DNA of 30,837 nt from Candidatus Krumholzibacteriia bacterium (GTDB taxonomy: Bacteria; Krumholzibacteriota; Krumholzibacteriia; WVZY01; JAKEHA01). The position numbers were made by a program, and so were the translations under genes. Shown piece by piece: positions 3,092 through 30,837 of the stretch (within the stretch, counting starts at the first letter, position 1; every line of letters starts with the position of its first letter). Location of the stretch: assembly GCA_041742575.1 (NCBI GenBank), contig JBGSIK010000403.1, forward strand, positions 1-30,837. The letters run 5' to 3'. A model generated the notes under the pieces. That model was not told where the DNA came from and searched no databases. It saw nothing but the letters and a program-made list of their open reading frames with translations.

Positions 3092-6000
3092 ATGAATCGG
3101 CGGAACATCGTCCCGTTCATAGGTTTCCTATTATTGGCGGTCATGTTGTGCCCAAGCGCGGGCTCGGCGTATTACCTCAAAATGACATCGCCCCCCGACG
3201 TGGACAAATCGTATCCGAACAACACCTGCTGGCTGGCCACTGCGGCCAACATGCTGGCCGGGGCCGGATACGGCGTCAGCAGCCCGATCACCACGCCGCA
3301 AGGCCGGGCCATGTACATCTACGGCCAGCTCGTGGAGGAATTCGGCCAGATCGAGTGAGGGTACATCGACACAGCCATCAGTTGGTGGCTCAAAAACAGA
3401 AACGATGACTCCGACAACACGTACGACATCGTCCAATTCTACGGCAATCGGCGCCGAGAGCCCTGGCGAGAAGAGTACGGGGCGCAATTCATCAGTAATA
3501 GTCTCCGGCGTTGTCGCTATGCCGGCTTAGGACTCAGCTGGGCCGGTCCGGTCTCCAGCAGCTGCGGGCAGCTGCATGTGGTGACCGCTTGGGGAGACGA
3601 GCAGGGTACTGGTTACCTCTCGGACAATCCGGCCACCTTCAATATCACGGATTCGGACAATGAGCTCATCCTGGGACCTACTCAGCCGAACGTCAGAACC
3701 TATGGCCTGCAGTACAACGGTCCCGCGGGAGAAGGCTGGTACCTCCCCACCTACGACGTCTACCCGACACACCCGTTCATCATGAACGTCGCCTTCCTGG
3801 TCCAGGGGAATTACAGCTTGCCGGCCGATTGCTACGAGGCGGTCAAGGTGGTCGGATCCTACCGGCTCACTCAGGTTGGTTCGACCGCTGCCACCGGGTT
3901 GGACTACAGGGCTGGGACGGACGTCGGGATTTACTGGTATGAAACCCATGCCGGCGTGGAAGGCGACTCCACGGCCACACCAGTGCCTGGTCACGATCCA
4001 CCGTGGGCCTACGACTTTGAATGGACTTTCGATGAACCTGTGCCGCAAGGGACGCAGGTGACGATATTCACCGAGTTTGCCGAGTGCGTCAGGAACGCGA
4101 TCTATTACAGAGATGTTAGTTTCACCTATGACTCGCGCGACCGCGTCCAGGCCCCCGGCGGGGCCGCTGCGCCACGGGACATCACTGTCCCGGCGATACA
4201 GATCACGGTGGACACCGAGGATCTCTCCGATACGGACATCCCCAACATCTGCGGCGGACAAGTGGTCGGAGCCTTCGAATTGTACAGCGATGAAGCCCGC
4301 ACCACCTTGCTGGGTGAATTCAGATTCGAACACGAGTACAACTGGGATCAGGATCCGGAGCACCACTGGTTTACGGTCGCACTGAGGGACAACACACCCT
4401 GTTGGGTCGGGGACGTCCGGTTCGGGCACAGTCATGGTTTCCTCGACCAGGAAGCGCTGTGGGAATTCGAGGAGTGGTTCGAAGTGCATTATGGAACTGC
4501 CGCTCTGACCGCCACGGATTCGATCAGCTATACCTTGAGCTGGGACGGCCGGCTACCCTACCCGCCGATGACTTCGGGGGACGAGCAACAGTTGGATTGC
4601 ATCGACCATACGTGTTGGAGCGTCCAGGATGTGGACCTCTTCCAGGACAACTTCCCAACCAACGGGACTTCGGCGGGGGCGGGTCGGATCGATATGGCCC
4701 GGCTTCTCGGCCTTGCCTCCGGCGCCGTTCTCGGCGACTCGGCCGTGGTCTCTGTTTACGATTCGCTGGGCATTGCCGAGGATAATTCGATAGGTGGGCC
4801 GGCGGTGTACTTCTACCTGCATCGCGCGCCGGCCACCAAACCCGTGAATCCGATCAGCGCAGTGGAGAACGCGTTTCGCTGGCCGATGGTCGATTCGACT
4901 ACTGCGGCCGACGGACGGCTGTGGTATCGATTCCGGATGGACAGCTGTTTCACCGATCCGGCCGGACCGGGCACTCGCACCGGATATGTGCCCGACCGAT
5001 ACTGCATCGATGTCAACGACAACTATTTCGAGAATGGTGACACCTTGTGGTTCGTCTTCGGTTCCCGGAACGTTGGGGATGAATTCACCTGGTGGAGCCA
5101 AAGTGCCGGGGCGGTTTCCACGTTGGACGAAGCCTGCGCAGCGCCGATGGAGATGCAGATCCTGCCCGGAGCCGGTCCCGGTCGCGGCGGCGATATTCTG
5201 TATGTCGACAACTTCGGGAACCGCGCGGCGAGGGCCGACTACGATTGGGCCTTCAAGATGATGGGTTTGGACCAACAGGTCGACCGGTTCGACAAGCGCG
5301 GGGCGTCTCTGGCCGTCGGCAACGGCCTGGGCAACATCTGCGGGAACGCCGAAGGCCAGCTGATCCCCAATTATCGAAAGATCATTTGGGATTCAGGGAA
5401 TCTAAAGCAGGGAACGGTCGGTGACGGCACCGGCGCTCCGGAGTTGTCCGATGATTTCGCACTGCTCAGTCAATTCCTGAATAATCACACCAACTCCTCA
5501 GGCTGCGGCGTATATCTCACCGGAGACAACCTGGCCGAAGAGTGGGCCGGTTTCAGCAGCGCATCTGCCGTCAATTTCCAGGCTACCTATATGCCCCATG
5601 ATCTGATCACCGGCGATCATAAGCCCTTACACGGCGGATCTCCGTTCGTGATCGGAGAAACCGGCGGTATATTCACGAGCGGCAGCCCGATCATGCCGGA
5701 CACGCTGGTCGCCTATCAAGACTGGCGGGCGGCCTCCGGCCCCGCCGATTTCGATCAGGTGAAGCCTAAACCTGGCGCCGTACTGCAGATGACCTACCGA
5801 GGCACGCATAGCTCGACTGACGGAGCGGTGTTGTCTTATTCCACCAGCAACTATAATGGTCCGGTGGGCGTTGTGCTGTCCAGTTTCAGCTATCACGCCA
5901 TCCGCGACGACCGCCCCCAGAATCCCATGGACCGTGTCGAGCATCTGTACCGGATTCTCACCTGGCTGGGAAACGCCATCGATGAGCCGACCGGGAGCGA

Positions 6001-6298
6001 GGCTGCGCTGCCGTTCCGTGACTATTTGGCCCAGAACTTCCCGAATCCCTTCAATCCGTACACTACCATCCGCTATTCGATTCGGGAGCGCTCACACGTG
6101 ACCTTGAGGATATACAACGTGGCGGGCCAACTGGTGCGGACGCTGGTGGATGGCGAACAGTTGCCGCGGGCGGAGGGATTCACGATCAAGTGGGACGGCC
6201 GAAACGAAACCGGAGAAGCGGTCGCGACCGGCGTTTACCTGTACCGGCTGGTAACGAAGCAGTACACACAGACCAGGAAGCTGGTGTTGCTAAAGTGA
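3092..6298 (+). CDS. Secreted multidomain protein with an N-terminal IdeS/Mac (C66)-like cysteine peptidase domain and a C-terminal FlgD-Ig/T9SS-type domain; one in-frame UGA at codon 89 (selenoprotein candidate or pseudogene)
   Basis: Track ORFs 3092..3358 and 3578..6298 share a frame, and TGA 3356-3358 is the only stop between them. Features: signal peptide MNRRNIVPFIGFLLLAVMLCPSAGSA; NNTCWLATAANML (Cys46); LHVVTAWG (His162); ITDSD; C-terminal QNFPNPFNP...WDGRN...GVYLYRL...RKLVLLK. Confidence 0.8.
3373..3390 (+). other. Candidate bacterial SECIS-like stem-loop
   Basis: AGCCATC-AGTT-GGTGGCT forms a 7-bp stem (one G-U) with a 4-nt loop having G at position 2. The loop starts 21 nt after the in-frame UGA. 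Confidence 0.35.
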
Positions 6299-6401
6299 CA
6301 CAAAAGCGGCTGGAGTCAATCTAGGTTTTGTGGTCGAGAGCGGAACGGTTATCGACATATCGCGAATTCACTGACAGCGTGTCTAACGATGATTCGATTG
6401 G

Positions 6402-6437
6402 ATCCTGTGGCTCGATCACGTGATCGAGCCACAGGAT
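6402..6437. repeat. Perfect spacerless 36-bp palindrome between convergent genes
   Basis: ATCCTGTGGCTCGATCACGTGATCGAGCCACAGGAT is its own reverse complement. It extends to 6390-6445 with a 4-nt bulge and one G-T pair. Confidence 0.95.
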
Positions 6438-6442
6438 TCGAG

Positions 6443-8236
6443 TCACTCTCCTCGCCGCGCTGAGATCTCGCGGTCTCCGCGCGAGAGGACGAACTCGATC
6501 ACGCCCCGGGGCGACGGGCCGATGCGGGCTGAAACTGAGACCCCCGTCATCGGGTCCCACGATTCGAGGCGCTCCCCACCCACGGGGAAGAAGCGGCACG
6601 CGGGATCCACGGGTCTCATGATCATTCCCAACAGTCTGTTCTTTCCCGAGCGCTCCCAGGCATAGGTGCGGGTCACGTCTCCGCGCTCGTGGCGAAAACG
6701 AACGGCCGTGAGGAAGTGTACCTCGCCGCTTCCGGTCCCCAGCACTTCGTATCCTTGTAGCGGCCCGAATTGCTCCTCCTGGCCCTTCGTCCGTTCTTCG
6801 TATGCGTTCCGGAGGTTCTCGATCGGGACCTTCCCCTGGTATGCATCAAACAGAGGAGTGAAGTCTCCTTTTGCACACGCGCCCACGATGCGATCGATCT
6901 CACGGCTCATGGTGACGAGCCGCTCGACGTTCTCCGTGGGCGGCGAGTAAATATACGCGTAGGCCGTCCATCCGTGGGGGACCACGCGAAGGGAATTGCG
7001 ATCGACGCTAACAGCGTATCTCTGACCGTTATCGAGTTCGTAGTCTCCGGCCCATTCGACGAGCACGCTCTGGCCGACGTCCACGACCTGGGGAACATGC
7101 GGATAGGGTTTGCCCATGAAAGCGCGTTCCTCGATCTGTGAGAGGAGATTGTTCGCCGTGGGGAAATCGGCTAATACGTTGGTCTGCAGAAACGCGACGA
7201 TATCGCGCGCGGGCACGATGGCGAGGTCGGCGAAGAAGATGCCATTCCCACCGTTGTGCGTGATGATGCGTACGCCGGGAGCGAGATCCACGATCGACCA
7301 GCCGTATCCGTAGAACGACAGGCTGTCGCCGTTGCTCTCATCGACGTAGGGTTTCCAGAGGGCGTCTCGAGTCGCGACGGAGAGCGTCGAGCCTTTGAGG
7401 AGCGTCTCCGCCCAGCGCACCATTTCCTCGGCCGTCGAGTGGATGCCGCCGTTGGCGCGCAAGGCCCAGTAGGGACCGTCCTCCGCCATCGGCCGTTCGA
7501 GGACCGTTCCCCAGCGTTCGCTGCCCGTGTACCCCTGCGCGATCCGCGACTCCTCCCATTTCGGGATCTGGTAGCCGGTTTCCGCGAGTCCCGCGGGATC
7601 GAAGACGAGTTCGCGCATGGCCTGCTCGTAACTTTTTTTCGTCACCAGCTCGATCACCGCGCCGAGGAGACTGAAGTTGGCATTCGCGTACGCGTACCGC
7701 TCGCCGGGGGCGGAGGCGAGCTGCCCCGTGAGGACGGCGCGGACGTACTCCTCGCGTCCGACCGGGTCGAAATCGTCGATGCCTTCGGGGTCCGTGATGC
7801 CGGAAGAGTGCGTGAGCAAGTGGTGGAGCGTGATCGTCTTTTTGTCAGGCGGTGTCTCGGGGAAGTATTTCCCCAGCGGGTCGTCGAAGCGCACGCGCCC
7901 TTGCTCCACGAGTTTCGCGATGCCGGCGGCCGTGAACTGCTTGGTGATGGAGCCGATGTCGGCGATGGTGGTTGGAGTCCAGGGGAGGTTTCGCTCACGA
8001 TCGGCGAGGCCGTGGCCGTCCGCGATCACGGGCTTCCCGCCCTCGGTGATGCACACGACTCCGGCAAATCCGAGCTTCTCCAAGCGCGAGAAATACAACT
8101 TGGTGTCCTGGACGAACGACTCGTCGAGGGTGGCGGCGGAAGCGTTGGAAGAGCAGATCACACCGGGACCGCGCGTCGCAACCGGCAGTACGGCGGCCAA
8201 AACCAGGACAACCGCAACAATTGACCGGGGTTTCAT
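6443..8236 (-). CDS. Exported serine hydrolase, beta-lactamase/PBP-like family (class C/AmpC-like fold), with C-terminal extension
   Basis: SxxK (GSITKQF), LLTHSSG, YxN (YAYANANF) and HNGG motifs, plus a signal peptide. SD AAGGAG precedes ATG 8236. Confidence 0.85.
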   Translation of the reverse strand: MKPRSIVAVVLVLAAVLPVATRGPGVICSSNASAATLDESFVQDTKLYFSRLEKLGFAGVVCITEGGKPVIADGHGLADRERNLPWTPTTIADIGSITKQFTAAGIAKLVEQGRVRFDDPLGKYFPETPPDKKTITLHHLLTHSSGITDPEGIDDFDPVGREEYVRAVLTGQLASAPGERYAYANANFSLLGAVIELVTKKSYEQAMRELVFDPAGLAETGYQIPKWEESRIAQGYTGSERWGTVLERPMAEDGPYWALRANGGIHSTAEEMVRWAETLLKGSTLSVATRDALWKPYVDESNGDSLSFYGYGWSIVDLAPGVRIITHNGGNGIFFADLAIVPARDIVAFLQTNVLADFPTANNLLSQIEERAFMGKPYPHVPQVVDVGQSVLVEWAGDYELDNGQRYAVSVDRNSLRVVPHGWTAYAYIYSPPTENVERLVTMSREIDRIVGACAKGDFTPLFDAYQGKVPIENLRNAYEERTKGQEEQFGPLQGYEVLGTGSGEVHFLTAVRFRHERGDVTRTYAWERSGKNRLLGMIMRPVDPACRFFPVGGERLESWDPMTGVSVSARIGPSPRGVIEFVLSRGDREISARRGE

Positions 8237-8397: not shown

Positions 8398-8666
8398 AGC
8401 AAAGGGAAAATAGCAAGCAGCGTTGATGGCCCTTATACGCGGCCGGCCTTATGGCGGTTCCGGGCGGCGGGTGGGTATTTTTCCGGATCGCTCAAGGGCA
8501 CGCGACCCGTTCTTTATTGATGGCCGGGATTTCCTGTTCGGCTCGTGTGCCGCCTCTGATAGGATTCCTGCCGGCGATTCGTTGGCTCCTTCGCGGAGTC
8601 TGTGAACACCGTCGAAGGGGTCCATCGGTTCGGATCACCCCGGTTTCCGGGAAGAGAGGAGATGGC

Positions 8667-9376: not shown

Positions 9377-9661
9377 CTAGCGCCGGTCGCGTCCGCGACC
9401 ACCGCCGGTGGGCTTGCGCTCGCGCGCTTCGTTCACCTGGATGGTGCGGCCGTTGAAATCCGTGCCGTTGAGCGCGGCGATCGCGGCCTGAGCGCCCTTC
9501 TCGTCCATCTCGACGAAACCGAAGCCGCGGGGGCGGCCGGTGTCGCGATCGGTGACGAGGGACACGTCGGATACGGTGCCGTGGGCCTCGAAAGCAGCCC
9601 GAACGGTTTCCACAGTCGCGTCGAACGGAAGATTGCCGACATACAGTCTCTTACTGGCCAT
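9377..9661 (-). CDS. Single-RRM RNA-binding protein (bacterial Rbp type) with a Gly/Arg tail
   Basis: RNP2 LYVGNL, RNP1 RGFGFVEM and C-terminal VNEARERKPTGGGRG. SD AAGGAG is upstream. Confidence 0.95.
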   Translation of the reverse strand: MASKRLYVGNLPFDATVETVRAAFEAHGTVSDVSLVTDRDTGRPRGFGFVEMDEKGAQAAIAALNGTDFNGRTIQVNEARERKPTGGGRGRDRR

Positions 9662-12592: not shown

Positions 12593-15376
12593 ATGAGATT
12601 CCGTCCAGCGATCTTGGCGATATGTACGGGCTTCGTCGTTTTCGTTTCGCTCGCGATTCCGGCGGAAACTGCCGCCGGCACGTGGGCGGAGACCTTCAGC
12701 TCGGCGTTTTTCAAGTACCGCGAGAACACCACTGCAGTCTGGGACACCGTGGCGGGCGAGATCCGGCTGCCTCCATTCAGCATGAGCCTGGTGGGGAGTT
12801 GCGCTACACCGGACGACGCGCGGGACGTCGAGGTCAGAGGAAACTTCGCTTATGTCACCGACAATGTTGGTTTGCAGATCATCGATATCGGGGACCCAGC
12901 CCACCCGGTGTTGATGGGTGGTTGTGACACGCCCGGCTACCCCATTGGGATCGCGATCGACGGCCATTACGCGTACGTGGCCGACTACCCCTCGGCTCTC
13001 AAAGTGATCGACGTGAGCGATCCCACCAGCCCGTCGCTCATAGGGAGTTATGCGATCACTGGTTCGGCGTACGATGTTGCGGTCGCGGGCGATTACGCGT
13101 ACGTGGCGGCGGCAACGCAGGCGTTGGTGGTGATCGACGTGAGCGACCCGACCAACCCAACGTACGTCGACGAATTGCCCGGAACGGAAGCATACTTTGT
13201 GGCGATCTCCGGCAACCACGCCTACGTGAGCGATGGCGACAACGGTATGATGGTGGTGGATATCACGGATCCCACCGATATTGTGCAGGTCGGCAGCTGC
13301 GGCACCGGCGGCCCGGCAAGAAAATCCGTCGTGCGCGGCGATTATCTCTACGTGGCGAATTGGACTGCGGGCTTCGCCGTGGTCGACATAACCGAACCGA
13401 CGGCCCCGGCGCTCGTCGGAGCATGCGCGATTCCCGGGATGTGCCGTGCACTGGACGTGACAGGGGATTACGCGTACGTGACAGGCTACCACACCGGGCT
13501 CTCGGTGGTCGACGTGAGGGACCCGGCCAATCCGGTGTTCGGCGACAGCGTGGACACGCCCGGCTATGCGTTCGGAGTCGATGCCGTGGGCGAATACGCG
13601 TTCGTGGCGGATTACGCTGGGGGGCTTCAGGTCGTCCGCATTTCCCATCGCACGCCGACGCCGATTGTCGCCGGGAATGTCCCGGCGGTCGCGGGCTCCT
13701 TCGGCGTGGCGGTGAGCGGAGACTTCGCGTATGTCGGCGAGACAACATCCGGTGTCCGGGTTGTTGACATCAGCGATCCGGAAAACCCGGTGCTCGTGAA
13801 CACCGTCAGCGTCAGCGGCTCCGCGTGGGAGTTCGACATCGAGGGCAACGAGCTTTATCTCGCCGCCGCGACAGGGCATTTCAAGGTCTTCGATATCAGC
13901 AAACCCACCGCTCCGATTCTGGTGGGTGGCTACAACACGATCGGGAACCAGACCAATGACGTCGCGGTCGCCGGCGACTACGCATATCTCGCGGACTACG
14001 ACGCCGGATTGTACGTGTTGGATGTGAGCAATCCCGCCAAGCCCGACTCCGTCGGCCGCTACGACACGCCGAGTATTGCGTGGGGTGTCGCGGTGGCTGG
14101 GGACTACGCGTACGTGGCTAACTCCGGCATCGGGCTGATGATCTTCGACATCCGCGATCCAGCACACCCCGCGCTCGTCGGGACCTACAATACCCCCAGT
14201 TCGGCGAACAAGGTCTGCCTCGACGGCCAACTTGCGTTCGTGGCCGATGGGACCGGCGGCCTCGTCATTGTGGACGTGACCGACCCGGCCGCGCCGGCGC
14301 TGGTCGGGAGCTACGTTACCCCGACCTACGCCATGGGCGTGGCCGTGGTCGGCGACCGAGCATTCGTAGCGACGCACACCGCCGGTCTGTACGTCATTGA
14401 CGTGAGCGACCCGGTAAGCCCGGTTTTGGAATCGTCCTACGACACGCCGGGTGATGCCCGAGCGCTTGACGTGGCCGGAGATCACGTGTTCCTCGGTGAC
14501 AATATGGGCGGGCTCGACGTGTTCCAGGTGTACGAGCGGTCGATGGATCTGTCGAAAAACGTCGCGCAGAGCAAGCGACTGCACATGTCGGGGGTTGTGG
14601 ACCGCATCAGAGTGATCCCGCAGCAGACAGACTCCATCGCGTGGGAAGTGAGCGCGGATGCGGGCGCGACCTGGCAGAGTGTGCCGGACACGCTGTGGAC
14701 CGACCTCATGTCGCCCGGGACGGAACTTTGCTGGCGGGCGACCCTACAGTTCACGACGCTTGGTGCGTATCCGACGTGCGACGAGATTCAATTCGAATTC
14801 ATGGATGACATCGCCTCGACATTTATCGAGAGCTTTGCGGCGGTGGTGCTGGATGTGGGGGTGGAGCTCACGTGGGAGATCACGAGCGATGATGCGGTGA
14901 GCGGGTTCGAGATCTACCGTGGGGTTGTGGCGGGAGATCTGGGCGAGCGGGTGAGTGGGTCGGGGATGATACCCGCAGAGGCGAGAAGCTACGTGGACGA
15001 GACCACCGACGGGCGGACATACGCGTACACGCTGCGTGTGGTGTTGGCGGACGGTTCGGTGGTGGAGTCGCGGACGGTGGAAGTGAGTGCGCCGGTGCGG
15101 ACGCTTGCGCTCCATCAGAACTACCCGAACCCGTTCAATCCGACGACAATGATCTCGTTCGCGCTGCCTGCGGAGAGCATGGTGGAGCTGGCGGTCTACG
15201 ATGTGGAAGGGCGTTTGGTGCGAAGGCTGGTGCGGGGGCCGATGACTGCGGGAGTCAAGGAGGTAACGTGGGACGGTCGCGACGACGGCGGGAATCCCGT
15301 GGGCTCGGGGGTTTATCTGTACCAGTTGAGAGCGGGCACACGCACGCTGGCGAAGAAGATGGTGCTTTTGAAGTAG
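12593..15376 (+). CDS. Secreted LVIVD-repeat beta-propeller protein with a C-terminal FlgD-Ig/T9SS-type domain
   Basis: Signal peptide, then 14 repeats of consensus GLxVIDVSDPxxPxLVGSYDTPGxAxGVAVAGDYAYVAD, then QNYPNPFNP...WDGRDD...GVYLYQL...KKMVLLK. SD GGGAGA precedes the ATG. Confidence 0.92.
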   Translation: MRFRPAILAICTGFVVFVSLAIPAETAAGTWAETFSSAFFKYRENTTAVWDTVAGEIRLPPFSMSLVGSCATPDDARDVEVRGNFAYVTDNVGLQIIDIGDPAHPVLMGGCDTPGYPIGIAIDGHYAYVADYPSALKVIDVSDPTSPSLIGSYAITGSAYDVAVAGDYAYVAAATQALVVIDVSDPTNPTYVDELPGTEAYFVAISGNHAYVSDGDNGMMVVDITDPTDIVQVGSCGTGGPARKSVVRGDYLYVANWTAGFAVVDITEPTAPALVGACAIPGMCRALDVTGDYAYVTGYHTGLSVVDVRDPANPVFGDSVDTPGYAFGVDAVGEYAFVADYAGGLQVVRISHRTPTPIVAGNVPAVAGSFGVAVSGDFAYVGETTSGVRVVDISDPENPVLVNTVSVSGSAWEFDIEGNELYLAAATGHFKVFDISKPTAPILVGGYNTIGNQTNDVAVAGDYAYLADYDAGLYVLDVSNPAKPDSVGRYDTPSIAWGVAVAGDYAYVANSGIGLMIFDIRDPAHPALVGTYNTPSSANKVCLDGQLAFVADGTGGLVIVDVTDPAAPALVGSYVTPTYAMGVAVVGDRAFVATHTAGLYVIDVSDPVSPVLESSYDTPGDARALDVAGDHVFLGDNMGGLDVFQVYERSMDLSKNVAQSKRLHMSGVVDRIRVIPQQTDSIAWEVSADAGATWQSVPDTLWTDLMSPGTELCWRATLQFTTLGAYPTCDEIQFEFMDDIASTFIESFAAVVLDVGVELTWEITSDDAVSGFEIYRGVVAGDLGERVSGSGMIPAEARSYVDETTDGRTYAYTLRVVLADGSVVESRTVEVSAPVRTLALHQNYPNPFNPTTMISFALPAESMVELAVYDVEGRLVRRLVRGPMTAGVKEVTWDGRDDGGNPVGSGVYLYQLRAGTRTLAKKMVLLK

Positions 15377-22242: not shown

Positions 22243-25101
22243 TTACAGTCTGGAGACGGTGATCGCGTAACTTGCCCAGGAAGAAGGGTGGCGGATGCCC
22301 TTCGGGCCCCTGAGTTGTGCCCGGCGGGCTTCGGCGAGCGCGTGGATTTCGTCCATCTTCGCGTTCTTCCAGCCTTTGACGAACGATGTCCCGATCCGGA
22401 GTGCATCCTTGTCTTTGACATCCCAGAACGTGTGGACGACGGCGCCCGCTCCCGCATCGAGGAACGCATCGCCCAGACTCGGAGCAACTCCTCCGGCGGC
22501 AACGTACGGTGCCCCGCTCGAGCATCCCGAGAGCACCACGACACCGCACCGGCGAAGGTCCGCGGCGCGTATGTCGGTGACGTCGAGAACGGCGGCGTCG
22601 GGGGAGGGATCATCGCCCGGTTTCCCGAGGACAATCATCGCGAGATACGGGGGATCGCATACCGTGTGAGCAGCGATGTAGATGTAGGGCGCGTTTTCCC
22701 AGCTTTGCGCGAGGCGTTGTTTCGTTGCTGATTCTCCCGAAAGGAGAATGGCCGAAGAATCGTAGGCGGCGAGGGTTTCACCCTCGGCTTCCGCCCCGCC
22801 GAGCGTGCGAAGCCGGCGGGGCCCGCCGCGAAACCCGGCTGAAGGTTCTCCATTGACGAGAATCAATCCGCGACCTCGGCTCTTGAGGGTGGGGTCACGG
22901 CGGATGTGCCGCACGTATGCCACGTCGCGATGTTCGAGAAGAGGTTCGTACTCTTCGCGGAATCCAACATCGAAGGCCTCGAATGGAATGGTGCCGAGGA
23001 AATTGTCGGTGGTGACGAGCAAGGACGGTGACTCCAAAGGGGACGAGTTCGTGTCGAGGATCTCCGGAGGCAGAAGCGCGCGTGCCAGCGCCCGCAGGTT
23101 CTTACGAAGCCCCTCGTCTGCGGGCGCGTCTGGATCGTCCGGGTAGGATGACATGGCTTTCCGAGTGGAAGTGACGAGTCTACGCACTTCCTCGGTTGAA
23201 GAACTCAACACGTCTTTGCGAACGCCGCTCCGAGTGGCCGTCCACCGCCAGATCTCTTTGTCTCGAACAAGGTACACCGTGTGCACCCGGTCCGGTCGGG
23301 ATAGGCTCTCAAGGGCCTGCCGCCCCAACGATTGGAACCCGTGGACCAGTGTCTCGCTCGAAGGGCTCGCAGCGGTCGGTGTCCGGCCTCGCCGAGCGTG
23401 CGCCGCCCCCAAACCGGTTGTGCCCCGTTCCCTGGCTCCGAAAAGCAAGTAAAGTTCCCGCCAGTAAAACTCGGCGCCGTAACCCGCAATGTCATCGCCC
23501 GCCACGACGTCGTGAACGAGCTGTCGGAGCTCGTCTGCATCGGTCAGCCATAAGTAGCTCCCCACGCTCGCATCGATCGACGCGGCGGTCTCTCGGAGTT
23601 TCGTCAAACCATTCGCCGCGGCCTCGGCAGCTCTCCCGGTGTCCCCTCGCGCGAGTGCCACCATACCGAGAAGCGCGTCGCGCTCGCTGAGTTCGGTTCG
23701 AAGTTCGTTCTCCTCACCCACCGCAAATCGATCGAACTCTGCCAAGGCCTGCTGGGCGACGTCCGACTCCCCGAGCGCGCACGCCGCCTTCGCGGCGACG
23801 ATCGAAAGCTGCGCGGACCAAAGAGGTAGCGATTCCGTCGGCGGTCGGGAGAGCTTCTTGCGGGCTTCCTCCAAGGCGTCACGGGGGCGTCCGTTCGATA
23901 GGAGCCCCTGAGCACGACAGTACGCGTACTCGTCATCTTCCCCGCGGTAAGACGCCGGGAGCTTGAGTTCCGGGAGCCGCCTGTTGACCCTCCGCAGGAT
24001 CTCGTCGGCCCTCGCGGTGTCGCCCGACGCCATCCTGACTTGAGCCTCATAGACGTCTGTACGAAGGATATGGATCTCAGCCATGCCCAGCTCGAGATCC
24101 TCACACTCGCGCTCCAAGCCGCGGACCTGTGTGACGAGGTTTTCGACGATGTCCCAGCAGCCGAGATTGGCGTGGAACTTCATGGTTTCCTTGATGAAGC
24201 GCACCTCGTAGCAGCCGGGATCGTATGCGCGGGCGACGTCGATGGCTCGTTCGAGAAGGCGTCGTTTCACGTCCAAGCGGCCCAGACGGCCGTAATACGC
24301 GCCAAAGAAATCGAGGATACGCGCCGCTTGATATCCCATTCGACCCCGATAGGCGATCTCGAGCGCCTGCTCGTAACAGATCGCCATCGAATCCGGTTGG
24401 CCCCACTTCTCATACTGCGATCCCAGCCGCCCCAGTGTCTCGCAGGCCATCTTGTTTTCCCCGAGCTTGCGGAACTCGGAGCAGGCTGCTATGAGATACT
24501 GTTTCTGTCGCTCGTAATCTCCCAGCCGTTCGTACGCGTCCGACATGTGGAGATTTGCCATCGCGACCCATGCGCTGTCGCCGAGCGAAGCGAAAATTCG
24601 AGCGTATCGCGTGTGCTTTTCGAGCGCCTCTTCCGGAGAAAGGAGGTGATCGGACGGGGCGGCGATGTACGCCCACCGGGACCCCCACAACTCCTCGCGT
24701 CTTTTTTCGGGAAGGTCCCGCAAAAAAGCGATCTCACTCAAGTAGGAATCGTCTTGGTACACAGTTGAAAAAGCCTGCGCGATGCGGTCCGCATATCCTT
24801 CCAGGAGCCGAGCATCGTTCGTTTTACCCTGGATCGAAAGCTCGTGCACTCGCCGGAAGACATGATTGTTCATGCCGTTGAGCGCCTCGAAACCCATCTG
24901 GCGCGCATACAGCGCGAAACTGCTCGAATCGCTCGAGACCAGGTGGCGGACGAATTCGGGGGGTAATCCCTCGAGAAGGCGGCGGGCGTGACGGTCTTTG
25001 TTCGTCGAACAGGAAAGGACGGAAAGAATCACGCAGGCAAGACAGATGGCCACGAGCAATGGCCGAACGAAAAGCTGTTTGCTGGGGATGGGTCTCGTCA
25101 T
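22243..25101 (-). CDS. TPR-CHAT caspase-like (clan CD) protease, probable lipoprotein
   Basis: CHAT motifs LLVTTDNFLGTIPFEAF, YIAAHT (His), VVLSGCSSG (Cys), AFLDAGAGAVVHTFWDVKD and HPSSWASY, preceded by long helical repeats. N-terminal LLVAICLACVILSVLSC resembles a lipoprotein signal. Start is uncertain (25101 or 25170). Confidence 0.85.
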   Translation of the reverse strand: MTRPIPSKQLFVRPLLVAICLACVILSVLSCSTNKDRHARRLLEGLPPEFVRHLVSSDSSSFALYARQMGFEALNGMNNHVFRRVHELSIQGKTNDARLLEGYADRIAQAFSTVYQDDSYLSEIAFLRDLPEKRREELWGSRWAYIAAPSDHLLSPEEALEKHTRYARIFASLGDSAWVAMANLHMSDAYERLGDYERQKQYLIAACSEFRKLGENKMACETLGRLGSQYEKWGQPDSMAICYEQALEIAYRGRMGYQAARILDFFGAYYGRLGRLDVKRRLLERAIDVARAYDPGCYEVRFIKETMKFHANLGCWDIVENLVTQVRGLERECEDLELGMAEIHILRTDVYEAQVRMASGDTARADEILRRVNRRLPELKLPASYRGEDDEYAYCRAQGLLSNGRPRDALEEARKKLSRPPTESLPLWSAQLSIVAAKAACALGESDVAQQALAEFDRFAVGEENELRTELSERDALLGMVALARGDTGRAAEAAANGLTKLRETAASIDASVGSYLWLTDADELRQLVHDVVAGDDIAGYGAEFYWRELYLLFGARERGTTGLGAAHARRGRTPTAASPSSETLVHGFQSLGRQALESLSRPDRVHTVYLVRDKEIWRWTATRSGVRKDVLSSSTEEVRRLVTSTRKAMSSYPDDPDAPADEGLRKNLRALARALLPPEILDTNSSPLESPSLLVTTDNFLGTIPFEAFDVGFREEYEPLLEHRDVAYVRHIRRDPTLKSRGRGLILVNGEPSAGFRGGPRRLRTLGGAEAEGETLAAYDSSAILLSGESATKQRLAQSWENAPYIYIAAHTVCDPPYLAMIVLGKPGDDPSPDAAVLDVTDIRAADLRRCGVVVLSGCSSGAPYVAAGGVAPSLGDAFLDAGAGAVVHTFWDVKDKDALRIGTSFVKGWKNAKMDEIHALAEARRAQLRGPKGIRHPSSWASYAITVSRL

Positions 25102-25194
25102 CTCTTTGATCGCGGGGCGTCGATAGTGGAGCTCTCGAATCGGTGCGACACCGGGATGATGCGTTTGCATTGGCTTTTCGGCACGGTCAGGCGG

Positions 25195-25220
25195 CACGGA
25201 CACGAGGTTAGAATTCCCAG
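25195..25220 (-). promoter_or_regulatory. Bipartite motif copy 1 (putative ECF promoter) upstream of CHAT
   Basis: Minus strand reads CTGGGAATT-N11-TCCGTG. Confidence 0.55.
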
Positions 25221-25233
25221 TGAATTGTTTCAA
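25205..25233 (-). promoter_or_regulatory. sigma70-type promoter for CHAT
   Basis: Minus strand reads TTGAAA-N17-TAACCT. It overlaps motif copy 1. Confidence 0.45.
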
Positions 25234-25277
25234 TAGATTAATGTGTTCAATTCCTCCACGGCCACCGGATAATACAC

Positions 25278-25306
25278 TTGAACTCGCGGCACGCGTCGGA
25301 TATGAT
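25278..25306 (+). promoter_or_regulatory. sigma70-type promoter of the ECF sigma gene
   Basis: TTGAAC-N17-TATGAT. Confidence 0.65.
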
Positions 25307-25435
25307 TACGTTGTACTCGAGCCTCACGATGTACGGTGTCCCCGCGCAATGAGGGTGGGTTTTGCGGCGAGGAACATTTGGCGTCCCGTGGTCCGAAAGA
25401 CACCCGGTTGCGCGCTAAGAAGTCCGGTAGCAACG

Positions 25436-26290
25436 ATGCCAATCGAACACGGCCTTCCATTCGCCCGGCGGTTCGACTCATCCTTGTCGCTTGCGGCGGC
25501 GGCTTCTTCGGGTTCCATCCCCGCCTGGCACGAGTTCCTGAAACGCTATTCGAACCTCATATTCTCGGTCGTGCGGCGGCATCTCGTGTCGGAAGACGAA
25601 GAGGATGTCCGGTCCGTTTACGTTGACGTTCTCGAAGCGCTCTATACCGGTGAACTTGCGAAATACCGTGACGACGTGGAACTCACGACGTGGCTCATCG
25701 TCTTCACCAGAAGTCGCTCGCTCGATTTCTTCAGGAAGCGCCACGGGCGGTATCGCAAACCGGAGGGGTACAACAAGCTCACTGATTTCGAGAAGAAGGT
25801 GCTCGAGCTCTATTTCGTGAAATGGCTGCCGTTGGCGGTCGTCATAGAGATCCTCCACTCGACGGGGTTTGCGGCGACGGTGGATGACATCGTGGACGCC
25901 AGCACCCGGATCAATGACGTCATGGACGCCCGGTACCTCAGGAGGATCGAGCGACAGCATGATGCCGAGCGCGAAGGCGTCGAATCGGCAAGGATGCTCA
26001 AGTTCCTCGTGGAGTGTCAGTTGGAGCAGGAGGAGAAGACCCGAACGAATAGCCCCGACTGTCAGTTGTTCGAGGAAGAGGCCCAAGCGAGAATCGATCG
26101 GGTGAGAACGACTGTGGAATCACTTTCCCCCGGCGAAAGAGAGATCCTCGCGCTCCGATTCGCTGAGCGTCTCACGGCGAAGGAAATCGCGGGGCGTCTC
26201 AAGCTAGGTGGGCAGAGGCGGGCGTTTACCCGCATCGACAGGATCGTCCGCAAGCTCAGGAAAGCCATGGAAACGGGGGGACAAGTCTGA
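25436..26290 (+). CDS. ECF-type sigma-70 family factor, long form with two sigma4-like segments
   Basis: sigma2 (AWHEFLKRYSNLIFSVVRR...LTTWLIVFTRSRSLDFFRK) and C-terminal sigma4 (LSPGEREILALRF...LTAKEIAGRL). ATG 25436 was chosen because it lies downstream of the 25278 promoter. Confidence 0.85.
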   Translation: MPIEHGLPFARRFDSSLSLAAAASSGSIPAWHEFLKRYSNLIFSVVRRHLVSEDEEDVRSVYVDVLEALYTGELAKYRDDVELTTWLIVFTRSRSLDFFRKRHGRYRKPEGYNKLTDFEKKVLELYFVKWLPLAVVIEILHSTGFAATVDDIVDASTRINDVMDARYLRRIERQHDAEREGVESARMLKFLVECQLEQEEKTRTNSPDCQLFEEEAQARIDRVRTTVESLSPGEREILALRFAERLTAKEIAGRLKLGGQRRAFTRIDRIVRKLRKAMETGGQV

Positions 26291-26319
26291 GCGTGTTGTG
26301 AGAAAAAGGCGACGGGTGC

Positions 26320-26345
26320 CGGGTAGTTCTTGAAATTTGTCCGTG
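26320..26345 (+). promoter_or_regulatory. Bipartite motif copy 2 (degenerate) upstream of the anti-sigma
   Basis: CGGGTAGTT-N11-TCCGTG: 6/9 match in the left box, exact right box and same spacing. Confidence 0.4.
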
Positions 26346-26448
26346 TATCTGTAAAGAAAAGGTGACAGTGCCCTGAGGGGTACCTGAGCCGAGAGCCGAT
26401 AACGAGGAGTCGATCATCAAGACACGTCCAAACGGACCCCACCTCGGG

Positions 26449-27366
26449 GTGAACGATATCGCGAGGTTGCTCGACGGACGCTCGGGGGAAATCGAGCGGG
26501 CCAAGGTCGTTACGCATCTTCGAACCTGCCGTCGGTGCCGGGAAGTTTATTGGGACTCTGCGGCGGAGATCGGGTTCATCAGGGCCGGAGGGGCTTTTTC
26601 GGTCGGGGCGGACGATCTCATCGAGCGTGGAATGCAGGTGCCTGCCCAGGTTGACGCGACCAACCAGGCTCGCCGTGGCGCCGCGGGAAGAACCTCCGAG
26701 CGTGGATTCCGGGGCCGTTGGAGACTCCCCGCCGTTGTGGCGGCTTCAGTGGTGGTTGTCGTAGCGGTCGGTTTGTACACAGGCCGCGTTCTTCAGCAGT
26801 CGAGGCTCTCTCAAGCAGAATCGGAGATCCTTCAGCCCATCCGGACGGCTGTGGGGGACTTCTCGAGAGCCGGCGAGATCGTTCTTCCCGGCGGCGAGGC
26901 GTACGTCGGCGAGAGCGGGCCGGTGTTTCGGTCGCTCAATGGCGGCGCCGGCGAATCGCTCACGACGTCGCTCAAAAGTCTCCTGGAAGAGTTCCTAACC
27001 GGCAGTCGGTCGCCCGATGTGGCGTACTGGCTCGTTGCCGGTTATCTCTCCTCCAATAATGTCCGAACCGCCTCGATCTATGTGGCTGCAGCGCGCGAGC
27101 GTTTTCCCGGCGATCCCCGTTTGAACGTCCTCGACGCTGTCGTTGCGTATTTCGATCGCGACTATGTCCGGTCGGAGCGGCTGCTCCGCGATGTGGTGAA
27201 ATCTCACACCCACGATCCTCTTGCAGCGATCGCTCAAGTCAATCTCGCCATCGTTGTCCGCGATCAGGGAAACATCGCCGAAGCGCGGGACATTCTCCGC
27301 GCCGTTGCTCAACGCCACGAAGGAGAACCGATCGCGAAAAGGGCAGCGGAAATCGCGAGACTGTAA
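26449..27366 (+). CDS. Zinc-finger (ZAS/zf-HC2) single-pass membrane anti-sigma factor with a C-terminal TPR-like domain
   Basis: LLDGRSGEIERAKVVTHLRTCRRC (HxxxCxxC), TM AVVAASVVVVVAVGLY, and TPR-like helices (VAYWLVAGYL, AQVNLAIVVRDQGNIAEARDIL). It directly follows the sigma gene. The real start may be slightly upstream. Confidence 0.85.
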   Translation: MNDIARLLDGRSGEIERAKVVTHLRTCRRCREVYWDSAAEIGFIRAGGAFSVGADDLIERGMQVPAQVDATNQARRGAAGRTSERGFRGRWRLPAVVAASVVVVVAVGLYTGRVLQQSRLSQAESEILQPIRTAVGDFSRAGEIVLPGGEAYVGESGPVFRSLNGGAGESLTTSLKSLLEEFLTGSRSPDVAYWLVAGYLSSNNVRTASIYVAAARERFPGDPRLNVLDAVVAYFDRDYVRSERLLRDVVKSHTHDPLAAIAQVNLAIVVRDQGNIAEARDILRAVAQRHEGEPIAKRAAEIARL

Positions 27367-27800
27367 TCTTATCTGTGTAACTGGCCCTGGTGCGGACTCC
27401 ATCAGAGGAGGAGGACCATGGCCCCACCCCTCCCACCGACAAGTCAATCGATGATCTGGTCGCCGCCAAGAAGCCCGAGGAGATCCTCGGGGAGGAAGGC
27501 ATTTCGAAGGAGCTCACGAGGCGGCTCGTCGAACGCGCCATAGGGGGCGAGACGGCTCCTCACCTCGGCTACCCGCCGCATGCGCCGGAAAGTGATCTAC
27601 ACGGCAACCGCCATTGAGTCGATGCCGTTGAACCCGCGGAAGATGATGCGTCAACGGGGGTTTTCCCGAACGCAGAGAGCGTGCGCAAAATCTTCTATCT
27701 CGCTCTCCAGCGGATCTCGAAGAACTCGCAGCGCCGGTCCTGGACTGATTTTGGGGCCCAGTACGCGGCGTGCGATTGGGAACGCGGGAAGCTACTGAGG
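27357..27800 (+). mobile_element. Decayed, internally deleted IS256-family element (one terminal repeat plus N- and C-terminal transposase fragments)
   Basis: N-terminal-like KKPEEILGEEGISKELTRRLVERA...HLGY is joined to C-terminal-like RKVIYT.TAIES...R.FPNAESVRKIFYLALQRISK, with frameshifts. The left end GAGACTGTAATCTTATCTGTGTAACTG resembles IS285-type inverted repeats as I recall them. No right IR was found, so the right boundary is approximate. Confidence 0.8.
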
Positions 27801-27936
27801 TCGCGGTCCATCGTGAATGTTCCTGCGGGTTGCGGTATCCCTCGATCGTTCGTCCATGGGGATCACGGGCACTCCCGGTTGCTGGTCCAGCAAAGCCGTC
27901 AAGTCATTCTTTTCCCGCCTTGAAAATCGATTCCTC

Positions 27937-27962
27937 CTGGGAATTTCATGTTGGATTCCGTG
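27937..27962 (+). promoter_or_regulatory. Bipartite motif copy 3 (putative ECF promoter) upstream of the S8 gene
   Basis: CTGGGAATT-N11-TCCGTG, with the same 15 fixed bases as copy 1. Confidence 0.55.
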
Positions 27963-28097
27963 TCTTATCTAGCGTTGGGAGCGGCTGATCCGGATCTTGC
28001 CGACTCGCGGGATGATTATCGCATTTCCGCGGGGCTCACAGCTAAGTGTTGGTAACTACCTTGCCTGGTTCTTCACTTAAGAAGGAAGGGACGAGTC

Positions 28098-30791
28098 ATG
28101 AAAAGACTACGACGACGAGTAATGAGCATTCTTGTATGCCTTGTGTGTGCGGCGGCCGTTGCCTTCGCGGCTGCGCCCGTTTCGGCGCAGTGCGTTGACG
28201 AGCATCCGTGGAGACACGGATACAACATCTACGATTACAACACCGGTGTGTGGCCGCGATGCATTCAGGACGTGGACATGGATTTGCCGGAGTTGGCGGA
28301 TTTCCTCGCGGAGTTCGGAGCGCCAACTCCGGGTGTGCCTGTGATCGCGGACATCTTCAACATCTACTGCGAGCCAGACCATGTGCCGCACGGGGTGATG
28401 GTGGAGACGTATTTCGATCACGTTTACAGCCGTTGGCCGGCCGAACATGTTGAAATGGCTACCGGCACTTGGGCCGAGAAGATACAGTACATAGCGGCCA
28501 ACTACGGACCAGGAACGGTGGTCAATCTCTCCACGGGACCCGGGTACGGGGACTGCGGCAAGAACGACATCGATTGTTGTGAGGCTGTCGAAGCGGCCTA
28601 CGCTGCAGGCGTGGTTCTGGTTGGCGCGGCTCCCGTGTTCATGTTCGACGACAACTGCGTGGGCGGGATCGCGGACAAGGTTCTCAGGTGTTGGTGGATA
28701 GACGCCGAAGGGGAGTTCGTTGCTGCCCAGCCGCCCTCGGACGTGAACAACGTGGCCGGCGTCGCGGTTCCTTCGAACTGGTACAACGATGACCCGCTGA
28801 TCCTGAAACACGTCATCAGGAAACCTCCGGGCTATGGCTGGGGATCGGCGTACGTCGAAAGCGGATCTTTTTCAACGCCGCTGCTGGCAGGCGCGATACA
28901 ACACATTGCGGATGTTGTGGCGTCGCGAGGCGTGCCGGCGGGAGATTTCGTCGAGACGGTTCTGGATTATGCGATATCTGGGTGCGATCGCGTGATTGAC
29001 GAGTCGAGCTACCAGCACACCGAGGGTATTGGGACGTCCTTTGGCCCGTGGTCTCAAACGCGCGGTTATGGGGTCTTCAGCGCATGGAAAGCCCTGATCT
29101 ACGCCTATGGTTACGGGAGACTGGAGGCCACCGACCACGAGCTCGATCCGGACGTTGTGAATCCCACAACCGACTTTTCGGACCATTTCGAGCTGCGGGG
29201 GGATCTTCTGGTTCCGGGGAGTCAGTCATTTCGTATCAGCCCGCTGGCGACGATTTCGGTGAAGGGCTCGAGTCCCGAAGGGCCGAACCTTGGGGAGTAT
29301 CCGACCCTCCAGGAGATCTACGTTGCCGGGGACATGGTCGTGGAAAGCTCTCTCGAGGTTCCGTTCACTCCGGACAAGCGGGGCGTGACGGCGACGGTGG
29401 TCGTGGGTGATGGGGGGTCATGCACGGTTGCGGATGAAGGGACGATTACGATCGACGCCGGTCAGGTCTTGTACGTGAAGGACGGTGGCGAGCTCAATCT
29501 GGCGAGCGGCGGCACCATCGAGATAAACAACGGAGGGGTTTTGTGTATCAGCGGCGAGTTCAATCACTACGGCACGCTGATTCTAAATTCTGGCAGCCAG
29601 ACGTTTTTCACGCCGACATCGGCGGCATACCTTGGTGCCGACGTCCACATTGCAGCGGGGGCGTTCTTCCTGGGTAGCAGTAACGTCACGACGGTGGCGG
29701 CCACCGACGCGATGGGGACGGGAGACGACCCGGCTCGGGTGGAGATAAGGTGCGAAGGCGAGATGGACCTCTTCGGCTGGCCGGTGTCGCCACCGACGTT
29801 CAAGTGTGCGAGTGCAGGAGCGGGGCAGTGGGCGGGCATCGCGTTGAGTCCGACGGTTCCCGGCATTACCTGCAATCTTGATTGCGTGCACATATCCGAT
29901 GCGGTGGTTGGGTTGGCTGTCGGAGGGAGCTCGGCGATAGTGGTCAACGGCATTGTCGTCGCGGACTGTGGCACGGGCGTGAAGATCAGCAACCGCAGTG
30001 ACGTCGATCTCAATGGCGGCGAGATCTCGGGTTGCACGGACGGCGTCGTCTTGTCGTACGCGAACGTGGACATCGACGCGGCGTCGATCCACGACAACAA
30101 CGTGGGCATCGACTGCACGGCAAGTGATCCCGTCGTGCGCGGCAGTATGATTTACGCGAACCACATCGGCATTGTGACCCACGATTCCAATTCGATACCG
30201 AACCTGGGGACCGTGGCTGACCCCGGCAACAATAACTTCCACGGTCCGAACCCGAAGTACCCTGGGCTGGCGAACGACTACCACATCACGCCGTTCGACC
30301 CTGCGAATGACATCTATGCTCAGAAGAACTGGTGGGGGACGACCAAATCTTCCCAAATCGCGGCGAGGATTGTGGTGATCGATGCGCCGCCGCAGGGGGC
30401 GGGAAGTGTCATTTACAGTCCGTGGCTGACGTCACCACCACTGGGGGGTTTGTTCACGGTTTCGGGAGAGATTGGGGAAGAGTCGGCGGTCGACGAGGCA
30501 GCGGCAGTTCCGGGCGGGACGTATCTGGCGCAGAACCAGCCGAATCCATTCAATCCCAACACCACGATTGGGTTTGGATTGGATAGGCCCTCGGAGGTTT
30601 CGCTGAAGATCTTCGACGTGACGGGGCGGCTCGTCCGGGAGCTTGCCAGCGGCGAGATGGCCGAGGGGAGACACGCGCTCACGTGGGACGGGACGGATAC
30701 GGCGGGGGCGAGCGTCGGCAGCGGTATCTATTTCTACCGGCTGACGGCGGGTACGTTCTCGCAGACCAGGAAGATGATTCTCCTGAAGTAG
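28098..30791 (+). CDS. Secreted divergent subtilisin-like (S8) peptidase with beta-helix repeats and a C-terminal FlgD-Ig/T9SS-type domain
   Basis: Signal peptide ending APVSA; GVPVIAD (Asp), PHGVMV (His), VVNLSTG, AGVVLVGAA, SGSFSTPLLAG (Ser) and GYGVFSAWKAL. His-to-Ser spacing is 159 aa. Parallel beta-helix-like repeats at about 29900-30200, then QNQPNPFNP...RKMILLK. Confidence 0.8.
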   Translation: MKRLRRRVMSILVCLVCAAAVAFAAAPVSAQCVDEHPWRHGYNIYDYNTGVWPRCIQDVDMDLPELADFLAEFGAPTPGVPVIADIFNIYCEPDHVPHGVMVETYFDHVYSRWPAEHVEMATGTWAEKIQYIAANYGPGTVVNLSTGPGYGDCGKNDIDCCEAVEAAYAAGVVLVGAAPVFMFDDNCVGGIADKVLRCWWIDAEGEFVAAQPPSDVNNVAGVAVPSNWYNDDPLILKHVIRKPPGYGWGSAYVESGSFSTPLLAGAIQHIADVVASRGVPAGDFVETVLDYAISGCDRVIDESSYQHTEGIGTSFGPWSQTRGYGVFSAWKALIYAYGYGRLEATDHELDPDVVNPTTDFSDHFELRGDLLVPGSQSFRISPLATISVKGSSPEGPNLGEYPTLQEIYVAGDMVVESSLEVPFTPDKRGVTATVVVGDGGSCTVADEGTITIDAGQVLYVKDGGELNLASGGTIEINNGGVLCISGEFNHYGTLILNSGSQTFFTPTSAAYLGADVHIAAGAFFLGSSNVTTVAATDAMGTGDDPARVEIRCEGEMDLFGWPVSPPTFKCASAGAGQWAGIALSPTVPGITCNLDCVHISDAVVGLAVGGSSAIVVNGIVVADCGTGVKISNRSDVDLNGGEISGCTDGVVLSYANVDIDAASIHDNNVGIDCTASDPVVRGSMIYANHIGIVTHDSNSIPNLGTVADPGNNNFHGPNPKYPGLANDYHITPFDPANDIYAQKNWWGTTKSSQIAARIVVIDAPPQGAGSVIYSPWLTSPPLGGLFTVSGEIGEESAVDEAAAVPGGTYLAQNQPNPFNPNTTIGFGLDRPSEVSLKIFDVTGRLVRELASGEMAEGRHALTWDGTDTAGASVGSGIYFYRLTAGTFSQTRKMILLK

Positions 30792-30837
30792 GCCCTGTCT
30801 CTCTGTGTTGACGAAGCCCGGCCGCCGGATCTTACGA

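Follow-up and report, generated by a model that had tools for sequence, protein, structure and literature searches.

Among the regulatory systems described so far, DdvS/DdvA of Myxococcus xanthus is the closest to the locus reported here. The promoters of the sigma factor DdvS were mapped by rapid amplification of cDNA 5′ ends (5′-RACE) and have the form GTAA-N16-CGT (PMC6061681). Its anti-sigma factor DdvA carries a periplasmic TPR-CHAT module; self-cleavage of this protein has been proposed but is unproven, and the signal is unknown (PMC11506125). A further group, ECF54, is found in a genomic context of CHAT, subtilase, carboxypeptidase and 4Fe-4S proteins (PMC8999054, PMC7826278). We analyzed a stretch of 30,837 nucleotides (nt) from a Candidatus Krumholzibacteriia bacterium (contig JBGSIK010000403.1, in the following called the window), in which the parts of the DdvS/DdvA system are split between genes. 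The listed sequencing runs that contain this DNA are metagenomes of hot springs, biofilms and sediment, and no RNA run is among them. In the window a bipartite sequence motif stands before the gene of a TPR-CHAT protease, before the gene of an anti-sigma factor and before the gene of a secreted S8-like protein. Comparison with related loci suggests that this motif is quite probably a promoter read by RNA polymerase together with the locally encoded sigma factor, which resembles the extracytoplasmic function (ECF) type. The motif copies and the genes concerned are the following.

22243-25101, minus strand: gene of the TPR-CHAT protease, 952 amino acids (aa), divergent from the sigma factor gene; Pfam CHAT match with E = 5e-33 and TPR matches
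25195-25220, minus strand: promoter-like site before the TPR-CHAT gene; −35 box GGGAATT (25218-25212), −10 box TCCGTG (25200-25195), 11-nt spacer; 17.4 bits in the family matrix introduced below
25436-26290, plus strand: gene of the sigma-70-family, ECF-like sigma factor, 284 aa; TIGR02937, Pfam regions 2 and 4
26320-26345, plus strand: promoter-like site between the sigma and anti-sigma genes; −35 box GGTAGTT (26322-26328), −10 box TCCGTG (26340-26345)
26416-27366, plus strand: anti-sigma gene; HxxxCxxC zinc motif, one transmembrane helix, periplasmic TPR domain; first canonical start GTG 26449
27937-27962, plus strand: promoter-like site before the beta-helix (S8-like) gene with a type IX secretion system (T9SS) C-terminal sorting domain (CTD); GGGAATT-N11-TCCGTG, 17.4 bits
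28098-30791, plus strand: gene of the secreted S8-like protein, 897 aa; signal peptide, N-terminal domain, beta-helix (NosD), T9SS C-terminal sorting domain

Direct reading of the window confirmed the three copies as the initial annotation had placed them, with CTGGGAATT-N11-TCCGTG at 25220-25195 on the minus strand and at 27937-27962 on the plus strand, and CGGGTAGTT-N11-TCCGTG at 26320-26345 on the plus strand. All three are intergenic, in sense orientation and equally spaced. They lie 93 nt upstream of the CHAT start codon (ATG 25101), 70 nt upstream of the likely anti-sigma start ATC 26416 (103 nt upstream of GTG 26449) and 135 nt upstream of ATG 28098 of the S8-like gene. The common pattern CKGGKARTT-N11-TCCGTG has exactly these three matches in the window, as compared with 0.00 in 100 dinucleotide-preserving shuffles. 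In the whole genome (3.0 Mb in 557 contigs, 75% complete, from a hot-spring metagenome) the same three matches are again the only ones, and the reversed control pattern has none. Thus the full motif is unique to the locus, but the minimal form GGKA-N16-CGTG, as which the sites could also be read according to the initial annotation, is at background and not specific by itself, occurring 280 times genome-wide as compared with 309 times at each neighbouring spacing. The signal lies in the full boxes, their clustering and their conservation and not in the 4+4 core.

The exact core GGGAATT-N11-TCCGTG is found three times in the genome, twice in the window and once on contig C425 (3052-3075), with about 0.08 occurrences expected from the base composition. 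All three are intergenic, in sense orientation and situated before genes of exported protease-type proteins. The site on C425 was returned by a matrix scan of the window's genome, and the gene behind it (3235-6912) encodes a secreted protein of 1225 aa with a papain-family Peptidase_C1 domain (E = 8.5e-39), a beta-helix, a dockerin-like domain and a T9SS tail. The flanks of this site and the leader of about 120 nt (C425:3037-3156) are homologous to the region upstream of the S8-like gene, with 77–78% identity; the boxes are identical in both sites (7/7 and 6/6 positions) and the spacer keeps 5 of its 11 bases.

The evidence that carries the promoter interpretation comes from the relatives. The sigma factor family is present in 26 of 41 near relatives and in 53 of the 156 genomes of the class, and among 1.84 billion representatives it makes up 146 clusters (50% identity, E <= 1e-30). 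At most of these loci a CHAT ortholog divergently adjoins the sigma gene and an anti-sigma ortholog follows downstream, as judged by tblastn. The intergenic DNA contains the family motif G(G/T)(G/T)AAT(T/C)-N11-(T/G)CCG(T/A)N immediately downstream of the sigma gene and, at numerous loci, upstream of the CHAT gene as well. A spacer of 11 nt is clearly preferred, with 34 pattern matches as compared with 11-22 at other spacings and, for matrix matches of at least 14 bits, 46 as compared with 5-13. In the spacer between the sigma and anti-sigma genes of 35 loci the best match has a median of 16.3 bits and reaches at least 12 bits in 23 loci, values that are partly circular in that 24 of the sites in these loci had served to build the matrix. 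On the strand toward CHAT, where the sites are outside the training set, at least 12 bits are reached in 9 of the 35 loci. Over the 330 nt preceding the sigma gene, read in sense orientation, the best matches have a median of 3.0 bits, and none of the 35 loci attains 12 bits. The proposal of an internal promoter that re-supplies the anti-sigma factor is therefore supported by the comparison, the position being kept in 23 of 35 loci.

An independent set is formed by four metagenomic contigs, the sigma factors of which are 65-83% identical to that of the window and none of which was used for training. These contigs carry the motif before the CHAT gene (where this region is present), before the anti-sigma gene and before the next one or two genes. 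Of 16 matches with at least 10.5 bits, 13 lie between genes and at most 300 nt upstream of a gene on the same strand, a zone that makes up 6.8% of the strand-specific positions (binomial P = 3e-13). In the relative L121 the protein encoded after the anti-sigma gene is orthologous to the S8-like protein over its full length (46% identity, 934 columns), and its gene is preceded by CGTAATA-N11-TCCGTG. The anti-sigma gene and the S8-like ortholog are adjacent in L121, with nothing corresponding to an element that separates the anti-sigma gene from the third site in the window:

27438-27800, plus strand: remnant of an IS256-family transposase, frameshifted, recognized in the six-frame reading; 48% identity (tblastn, E = 1e-8) to annotated IS256-family transposases

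Given the ortholog in L121 and its site, the layout with three targets is ancestral in the clade and the IS256 remnant a later insertion.

Alignments of the upstream regions (A4 to A6) show conserved boxes and diverged spacers, and in the alignment of the CHAT upstream regions from six genomes (A5) the boxes are invariant. Other genes bearing the motif in the relatives encode further T9SS-CTD proteins. In the window itself the matrix scan bore out that the other CTD genes are not preceded by a copy. After CGT all four sites of the window's genome have G, those of the genomes G027, G035 and G040 have A, and those of most other genomes have C. For sites chosen by us this base agrees in 14 of 16 within-genome pairs, 6 of which are supplied by the window's genome, and none of 20000 label permutations reaches this agreement. 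Such a genome-specific base would be expected of sites that are all read by one local factor. A pattern scan of G027, G035 and G040 gave 27 forward matches as compared with 4 for the reversed control; beyond the sites of the module itself few are convincingly intergenic, for example G027:3274146 before the gene of a 368-aa signal-peptide protein. Since orthologous loci carry the motif in equivalent places, the comparison also supports the initial suggestion that it is the recognition sequence, and its targets the regulon, of the adjacent sigma factor.

ECF promoters are characterized by an AA (AAC-like) at −35 and a CGT at −10, some 16-17 nt apart. Both the AA and the CGT are conserved in the motif. 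The −35 element C(T/G)GG(G/T)A of the initial annotation sits two bases off, and the C(T/G) at its front lacks conservation in the relatives. What is conserved at −35 is GGAAT/GTAAT, which gives G(G/T)AA-N15-CGT in the usual notation. From AA(T) to CGT the distance is 14 nt, at the short end of the range of 14-17 bp cited for ECF promoters (PMC6061681). Some of the −10 variants (GCCGAC, GCCGTA) resemble GCCGATAA. The consensus of sigma-28 (FliA) promoters is TAAA-N15-GCCGATAA, with 15 nt from TAAA to GCCGA. A FliA-type promoter was rejected, as TAA and (G/T)CCG are 13 nt apart here as compared with 16 nt in the consensus, and a sigma-54 promoter was likewise rejected because of the geometry.

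The protein proposed to read these sites was called the local ECF in the initial annotation. It does pass the ECF model (TIGR02937, sigma70-ECF, 58.6 bits at a cut-off of 42.9, residues 30-277), and Pfam recognizes Sigma70_r4 (E = 1e-8) and, weakly, Sigma70_r2 (E = 0.002). It is, however, probably not a minimal ECF: regions 2 and 4 are separated by a helical insert of about 100 aa (residues ~105-215; window 25740-26080), which is conserved in the family (alignment A1). In profile comparisons the closest matches of region 2 are the ECFs AlgU, SigW and RpoE, and those of region 4 are SigF, WhiG and FliA along with ECFs. The AlphaFold2 model (predicted local distance difference test, pLDDT, 80.5) has its best full-length Foldseek matches with sigma32, SigB and sigmaS (group-3/group-2 sigma factors, which contain region 3; E = 6e-5 to 1e-3), and ECFs align over 160-190 columns only. 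Within the insert Pfam found nothing. We also considered that the insert is a sigma-3 or a second sigma-4 domain and rejected this, as the isolated model has no significant match (best E 1.4 to sigma-4/helix-turn-helix domains).

The anti-sigma protein has weak profile matches to zf-HC2 and TPR and a weak match to NF052375. For its cytoplasmic part in complex with the sigma factor the prediction scored 0.71 as compared with 0.27 for the best control, a mark which 55 of 80 solved complexes and 3 of 110 mismatched pairs attained. The model supports the assignment of the downstream gene as that of the cognate anti-sigma factor. The N-terminus of the CHAT protein reads as a lipoprotein signal peptide. 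For the sigma gene, which lacks the motif, we find one other promoter-like site:

25278-25306, plus strand: sigma-70-type promoter-like sequence TTGAAC-N17-TATGAT; distance from the sigma start codon 130 nt

No second site of this type lies in 24900-28300, but with 0.7 expected there by chance the sequence is suggestive only; the sigma gene is probably driven by a promoter of the housekeeping type.

Putting these elements together, region 4 of the sigma factor would read the −35 box G(G/T)(G/T)AAT(T/C) and region 2 the −10 box (T/G)CCGT(G/A/C) across a fixed spacer of 11 nt, and transcription would start about 6-9 nt past CGT. The sigma factor would drive at least four units, namely the exported TPR-CHAT protease, the anti-sigma factor, the T9SS-secreted S8-like protein and the papain-family protease on C425. 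The anti-sigma factor would be expressed from the promoter inside the sigma/anti-sigma pair; no terminator-like site was found between the two genes, and read-through from the sigma promoter into the anti-sigma gene is therefore likely too. In this scheme the sigma factor would be made constitutively and held by the zinc anti-sigma factor. After release it would induce the anti-sigma factor as negative feedback and the CHAT protease and the secreted hydrolases as output, and there would be no positive autoregulation of sigma. By analogy with DdvA, the CHAT protease may cut the periplasmic part of the anti-sigma factor.

Several points weigh against this assignment of the sites to the local sigma factor. 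The sigma gene itself is without the motif, whereas positive autoregulation is usual, if not universal, among ECFs, and the sigma factor is atypical with its conserved insert and its best full-length structural matches in group 3. The distance from AA to CGT is 1-2 nt below that of most characterized ECF promoters. With 10.6 bits the anti-sigma site scores lowest of the four exact-geometry sites in the genome; its weakened −35 box GGTAGTT departs from the family core by one base (G in place of A), a variant which is also present in the closest relative, L123. The sites before the S8-like gene and on C425 are paralogous copies of one upstream region and hence not independent of each other. Scanned over the window's whole genome, the family matrix gives no excess of matches at spacer 11 as compared with other spacers, and consequently there is no support for a regulon larger than these few sites. 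The sigma factor, the anti-sigma factor and the promoter are all retained in genus g4, but no ortholog of the window's CHAT was found there; other CHAT genes of G007, a member of this genus, have no motif upstream. CHAT is thus a frequent partner and not an obligatory one. Finally, two paralogous sigma factors of the same genome could in principle read the sites.

These two paralogs are encoded on C322 and C306 (L088 and L089; 43% identity), where each adjoins a CHAT gene of its own in divergent orientation. The CHAT gene on C306 is preceded by TGTAACC-N11-TCCGTA and that on C322 by a TATAAT-like box. The sites of the window might thus be ECF-type promoters read by one of the paralogs or by another ECF, with the local sigma factor being a target. 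The pairing of each paralog with a CHAT gene, the related site on C306 and the missing site at the sigma gene would fit such an arrangement, but we consider it improbable because the motif accompanies the sigma family also in genomes with a single copy, such as the complete genome G007 with one match. Moreover, the −10 base is common to the sites of one genome, and the C306 site differs from those of the window in both boxes.

Slightly less probable still is that a DNA-binding regulator uses the boxes as its operator, with transcription starting from ordinary sigma-70-type promoters. At the CHAT gene there is indeed a candidate for such a promoter:

25205-25233, minus strand: sigma-70-like sequence TTGAAA-N17-TAACCT, overlapping the CHAT site; TAACCT lies within the 11-nt spacer

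In the alignment of the six CHAT upstream regions the TTG, 15 nt upstream of the −35 box, and TA..CT in the spacer are invariant as well and have sigma-70-like geometry, and GGA and TCC of the motif form a short inverted repeat. None of these sigma-70-like features, however, occurs at the sites before or after the anti-sigma gene (A4, A6) or at the GC-rich sites of genus g4. The motif is asymmetric, its symmetry not exceeding 3 bp, and all matches of at least 16 bits near the modules are sense to the downstream gene. No regulator gene besides those of the sigma and anti-sigma factors is conserved in the module. TTGAAA-N17-TAACCT is possibly an overlapping housekeeping promoter of the CHAT gene, and such a dual promoter would be compatible with reading of the motif by the local sigma factor. 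That the three copies are functionless chance matches or leftovers of local duplication is very improbable: the loose core is at background frequency and the upstream regions of the S8-like gene and of C425 are clearly paralogous DNA, but the shuffles expect no match, the three window copies have unrelated spacers with identical boxes, and the motif is kept at orthologous positions across families with otherwise diverged intergenic DNA.

Several sites lie at the margin of the set. In the window there is a fourth, weaker match:

30401-30424, plus strand: GGGAAGT-N11-TCCGTG, 14.7 bits, inside the 3′ part of the CTD gene

This match may be a chance occurrence. The ortholog of the S8-like gene in L121 has no internal match of at least 10.5 bits; the contig of the window ends at 30837, so that the gene downstream of the match is not visible. 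Elsewhere in the genome GGTAATC-N11-TCCGTG at C164:3066-3089 overlaps the end of one gene and precedes another by 68 nt, and is a candidate only. A stretch of 60 nt just upstream of the third site (27829-27887) is 82% identical to C486 1449-1508 on the opposite strand and may be a repeat or the end of an insertion sequence.

The region between the anti-sigma promoter and the anti-sigma gene deserves a closer description.

26350-26373, plus strand: 24-nt leader TGTAA(A/G)GAAAAGGTGACAGTGCCC directly after the anti-sigma −10 box, followed by a short GC hairpin

This leader is nearly invariant in seven genomes with a sigma identity of 54-100% (A4) and better conserved than the promoter boxes themselves; besides the window it is found in L123, L118, L120, L121, L024 and L025. 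The anti-sigma protein probably starts at a non-canonical ATC (26416, within the region 26404-26451), judging from the following features: it lies 6 nt after a GAGGAG Shine-Dalgarno sequence, conserved residues PHL are encoded upstream of GTG 26449, and there is no ATG, GTG or TTG after the in-frame stop at 26374. At this position the orthologs have ATC in G035 and G026a, ATA in G026b and ATG in G027. Possibly the non-canonical start keeps translation of the anti-sigma factor low.

The S8 label of the third target is not backed by the sequence searches, as neither Pfam nor NCBIfam gave an S8 domain even at E = 10 and there was no PDB sequence match. In an atlas feature search with a language model 99 of the 100 nearest clusters were Peptidase_S8 (score 0.89, 136-148 shared features, below benchmark), and the N-terminal domain is possibly subtilase-like, which we regard as a lead only. 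Its leader has a hairpin in common with that of the papain-like gene on C425:

27973-28009, plus strand: leader hairpin, common to the S8-like gene and the papain-like gene on C425 (C425 3089-3125)

The sequence GAGCGGCUG(A/G)UCCGGA(U/C)CUUGCCGACUC is almost identical in both copies, with one compensatory pair, and its fold energy is not significant (z = -0.58). An Rfam scan of 24900-28300 gave nothing relevant, with one spurious microRNA match and none for the hairpin.

In the relatives we made some further observations on the distribution of the motif. L120 carries it at 7265-7288 and 8631-8654 before two ferredoxin-like (Fer4_13) genes, which are interleaved with genes of DsbD_2 membrane proteins. 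In G040 (L034, C6) two strong sites, 9435-9456 on the minus strand and 12971-12992 on the plus strand, have an identical extended −10 box, TCCGTAAGACATC; one of the two lies inside the sigma gene at about codon 132, in the insert region, and the other after CHAT and before the gene of a 160-aa signal-peptide protein. Genus g4 (L029/L030; G007, G018) has the variant GGGAAT(C/T)-N11-GCCGAC about 100 nt after the anti-sigma gene, and in G018 the N-terminus of the protein behind this site looks like an exported hydrolase of the asparaginase or isoaspartyl-peptidase type.

The analysis provides a testable recognition sequence and a small regulon for an uncharacterized sigma family from an uncultured lineage. 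It connects signalling by sigma and anti-sigma factors with an exported caspase-like (TPR-CHAT) protease and with proteases secreted through the T9SS. The wiring would be a variation on the usual autoregulated ECF operon in that no promoter of the kind read by the sigma factor precedes the sigma gene and the anti-sigma promoter inside the pair is conserved across the class. A more far-reaching model, which we put forward only tentatively and think rather unlikely, is that of an envelope switch consisting of a constitutive sigma factor, an anti-sigma factor with a weak non-AUG start and an internal sigma-dependent promoter, and a sigma-induced, exported TPR-CHAT lipoprotein from a separate gene, which acts in trans as site-1 protease on the ectodomain of the anti-sigma factor. 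If this were true, positive feedback through the protease and negative feedback through the anti-sigma factor would give a pulse of T9SS-secreted proteases. It would then be a two-protein version of what has so far been no more than a proposal for DdvA, and more amenable to genetic tests, and it would rest on a sigma family bridging the ECF and group-3 architectures.

A comparison with known systems shows which parts are shared. With RpoE-RseA of Escherichia coli and SigW-RsiW of Bacillus subtilis the locus has in common a bipartite promoter with AA at −35 and CGT at −10 and an anti-sigma gene directly downstream of the sigma gene. It differs from them by the insert of about 100 aa, by the shorter promoter spacer and by the position of the promoter, which is between the sigma and anti-sigma genes and not before the operon. 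ECF54 is similar in its context, as there is an adjacent CHAT gene and a possible subtilase-like target here and ferredoxin-like (Fer4) genes with the motif in L120. ECF54 was, however, described from Actinobacteria and without an anti-sigma factor, whereas the present family belongs to another lineage and has a conserved zinc-binding anti-sigma factor (ZAS); the likeness is one of genomic context. In the type III-E Craspase system with Csx30, Csx31 and CASP-sigma a TPR-CHAT protease is likewise coupled to an anti-sigma-like protein and an ECF sigma factor (PMC10028731). Craspase is cytoplasmic, RNA-guided and CRISPR-linked, whereas here the protease is exported and there is no CRISPR component.

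The resemblance to DdvS/DdvA goes further. Both have an ECF-type sigma factor held by a single-pass anti-sigma factor with a zinc motif (HxxxCxxC), both have a periplasmic TPR-CHAT protease module, and in both several sigma-dependent promoters, putative ones in the window, are clustered in one locus. The promoters are also similar, the spacing being N16 for DdvS and N15 here and thus 1 nt apart. A sequence search with the window's sigma factor and CHAT protein against the PDB entries of DdvS/DdvA gave no match at E <= 0.01. The ddvS-ddvA operon has a DdvS-dependent promoter of its own, whereas here there is none at the sigma gene and only the anti-sigma factor would be fed back. DdvA fuses the TPR-CHAT module to the anti-sigma factor; here CHAT is the product of a separate lipoprotein gene and the anti-sigma factor keeps a TPR ectodomain only. 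In such a split system with defined promoters the protease, the anti-sigma factor and the sigma factor could be supplied separately in reporter assays. Finally, the DdvS regulon consists of defence systems, the cyclic oligonucleotide-based antiphage signaling system (CBASS) and CRISPR-Cas, whereas the candidate regulon of the present sigma factor consists of secreted proteases and hydrolases.

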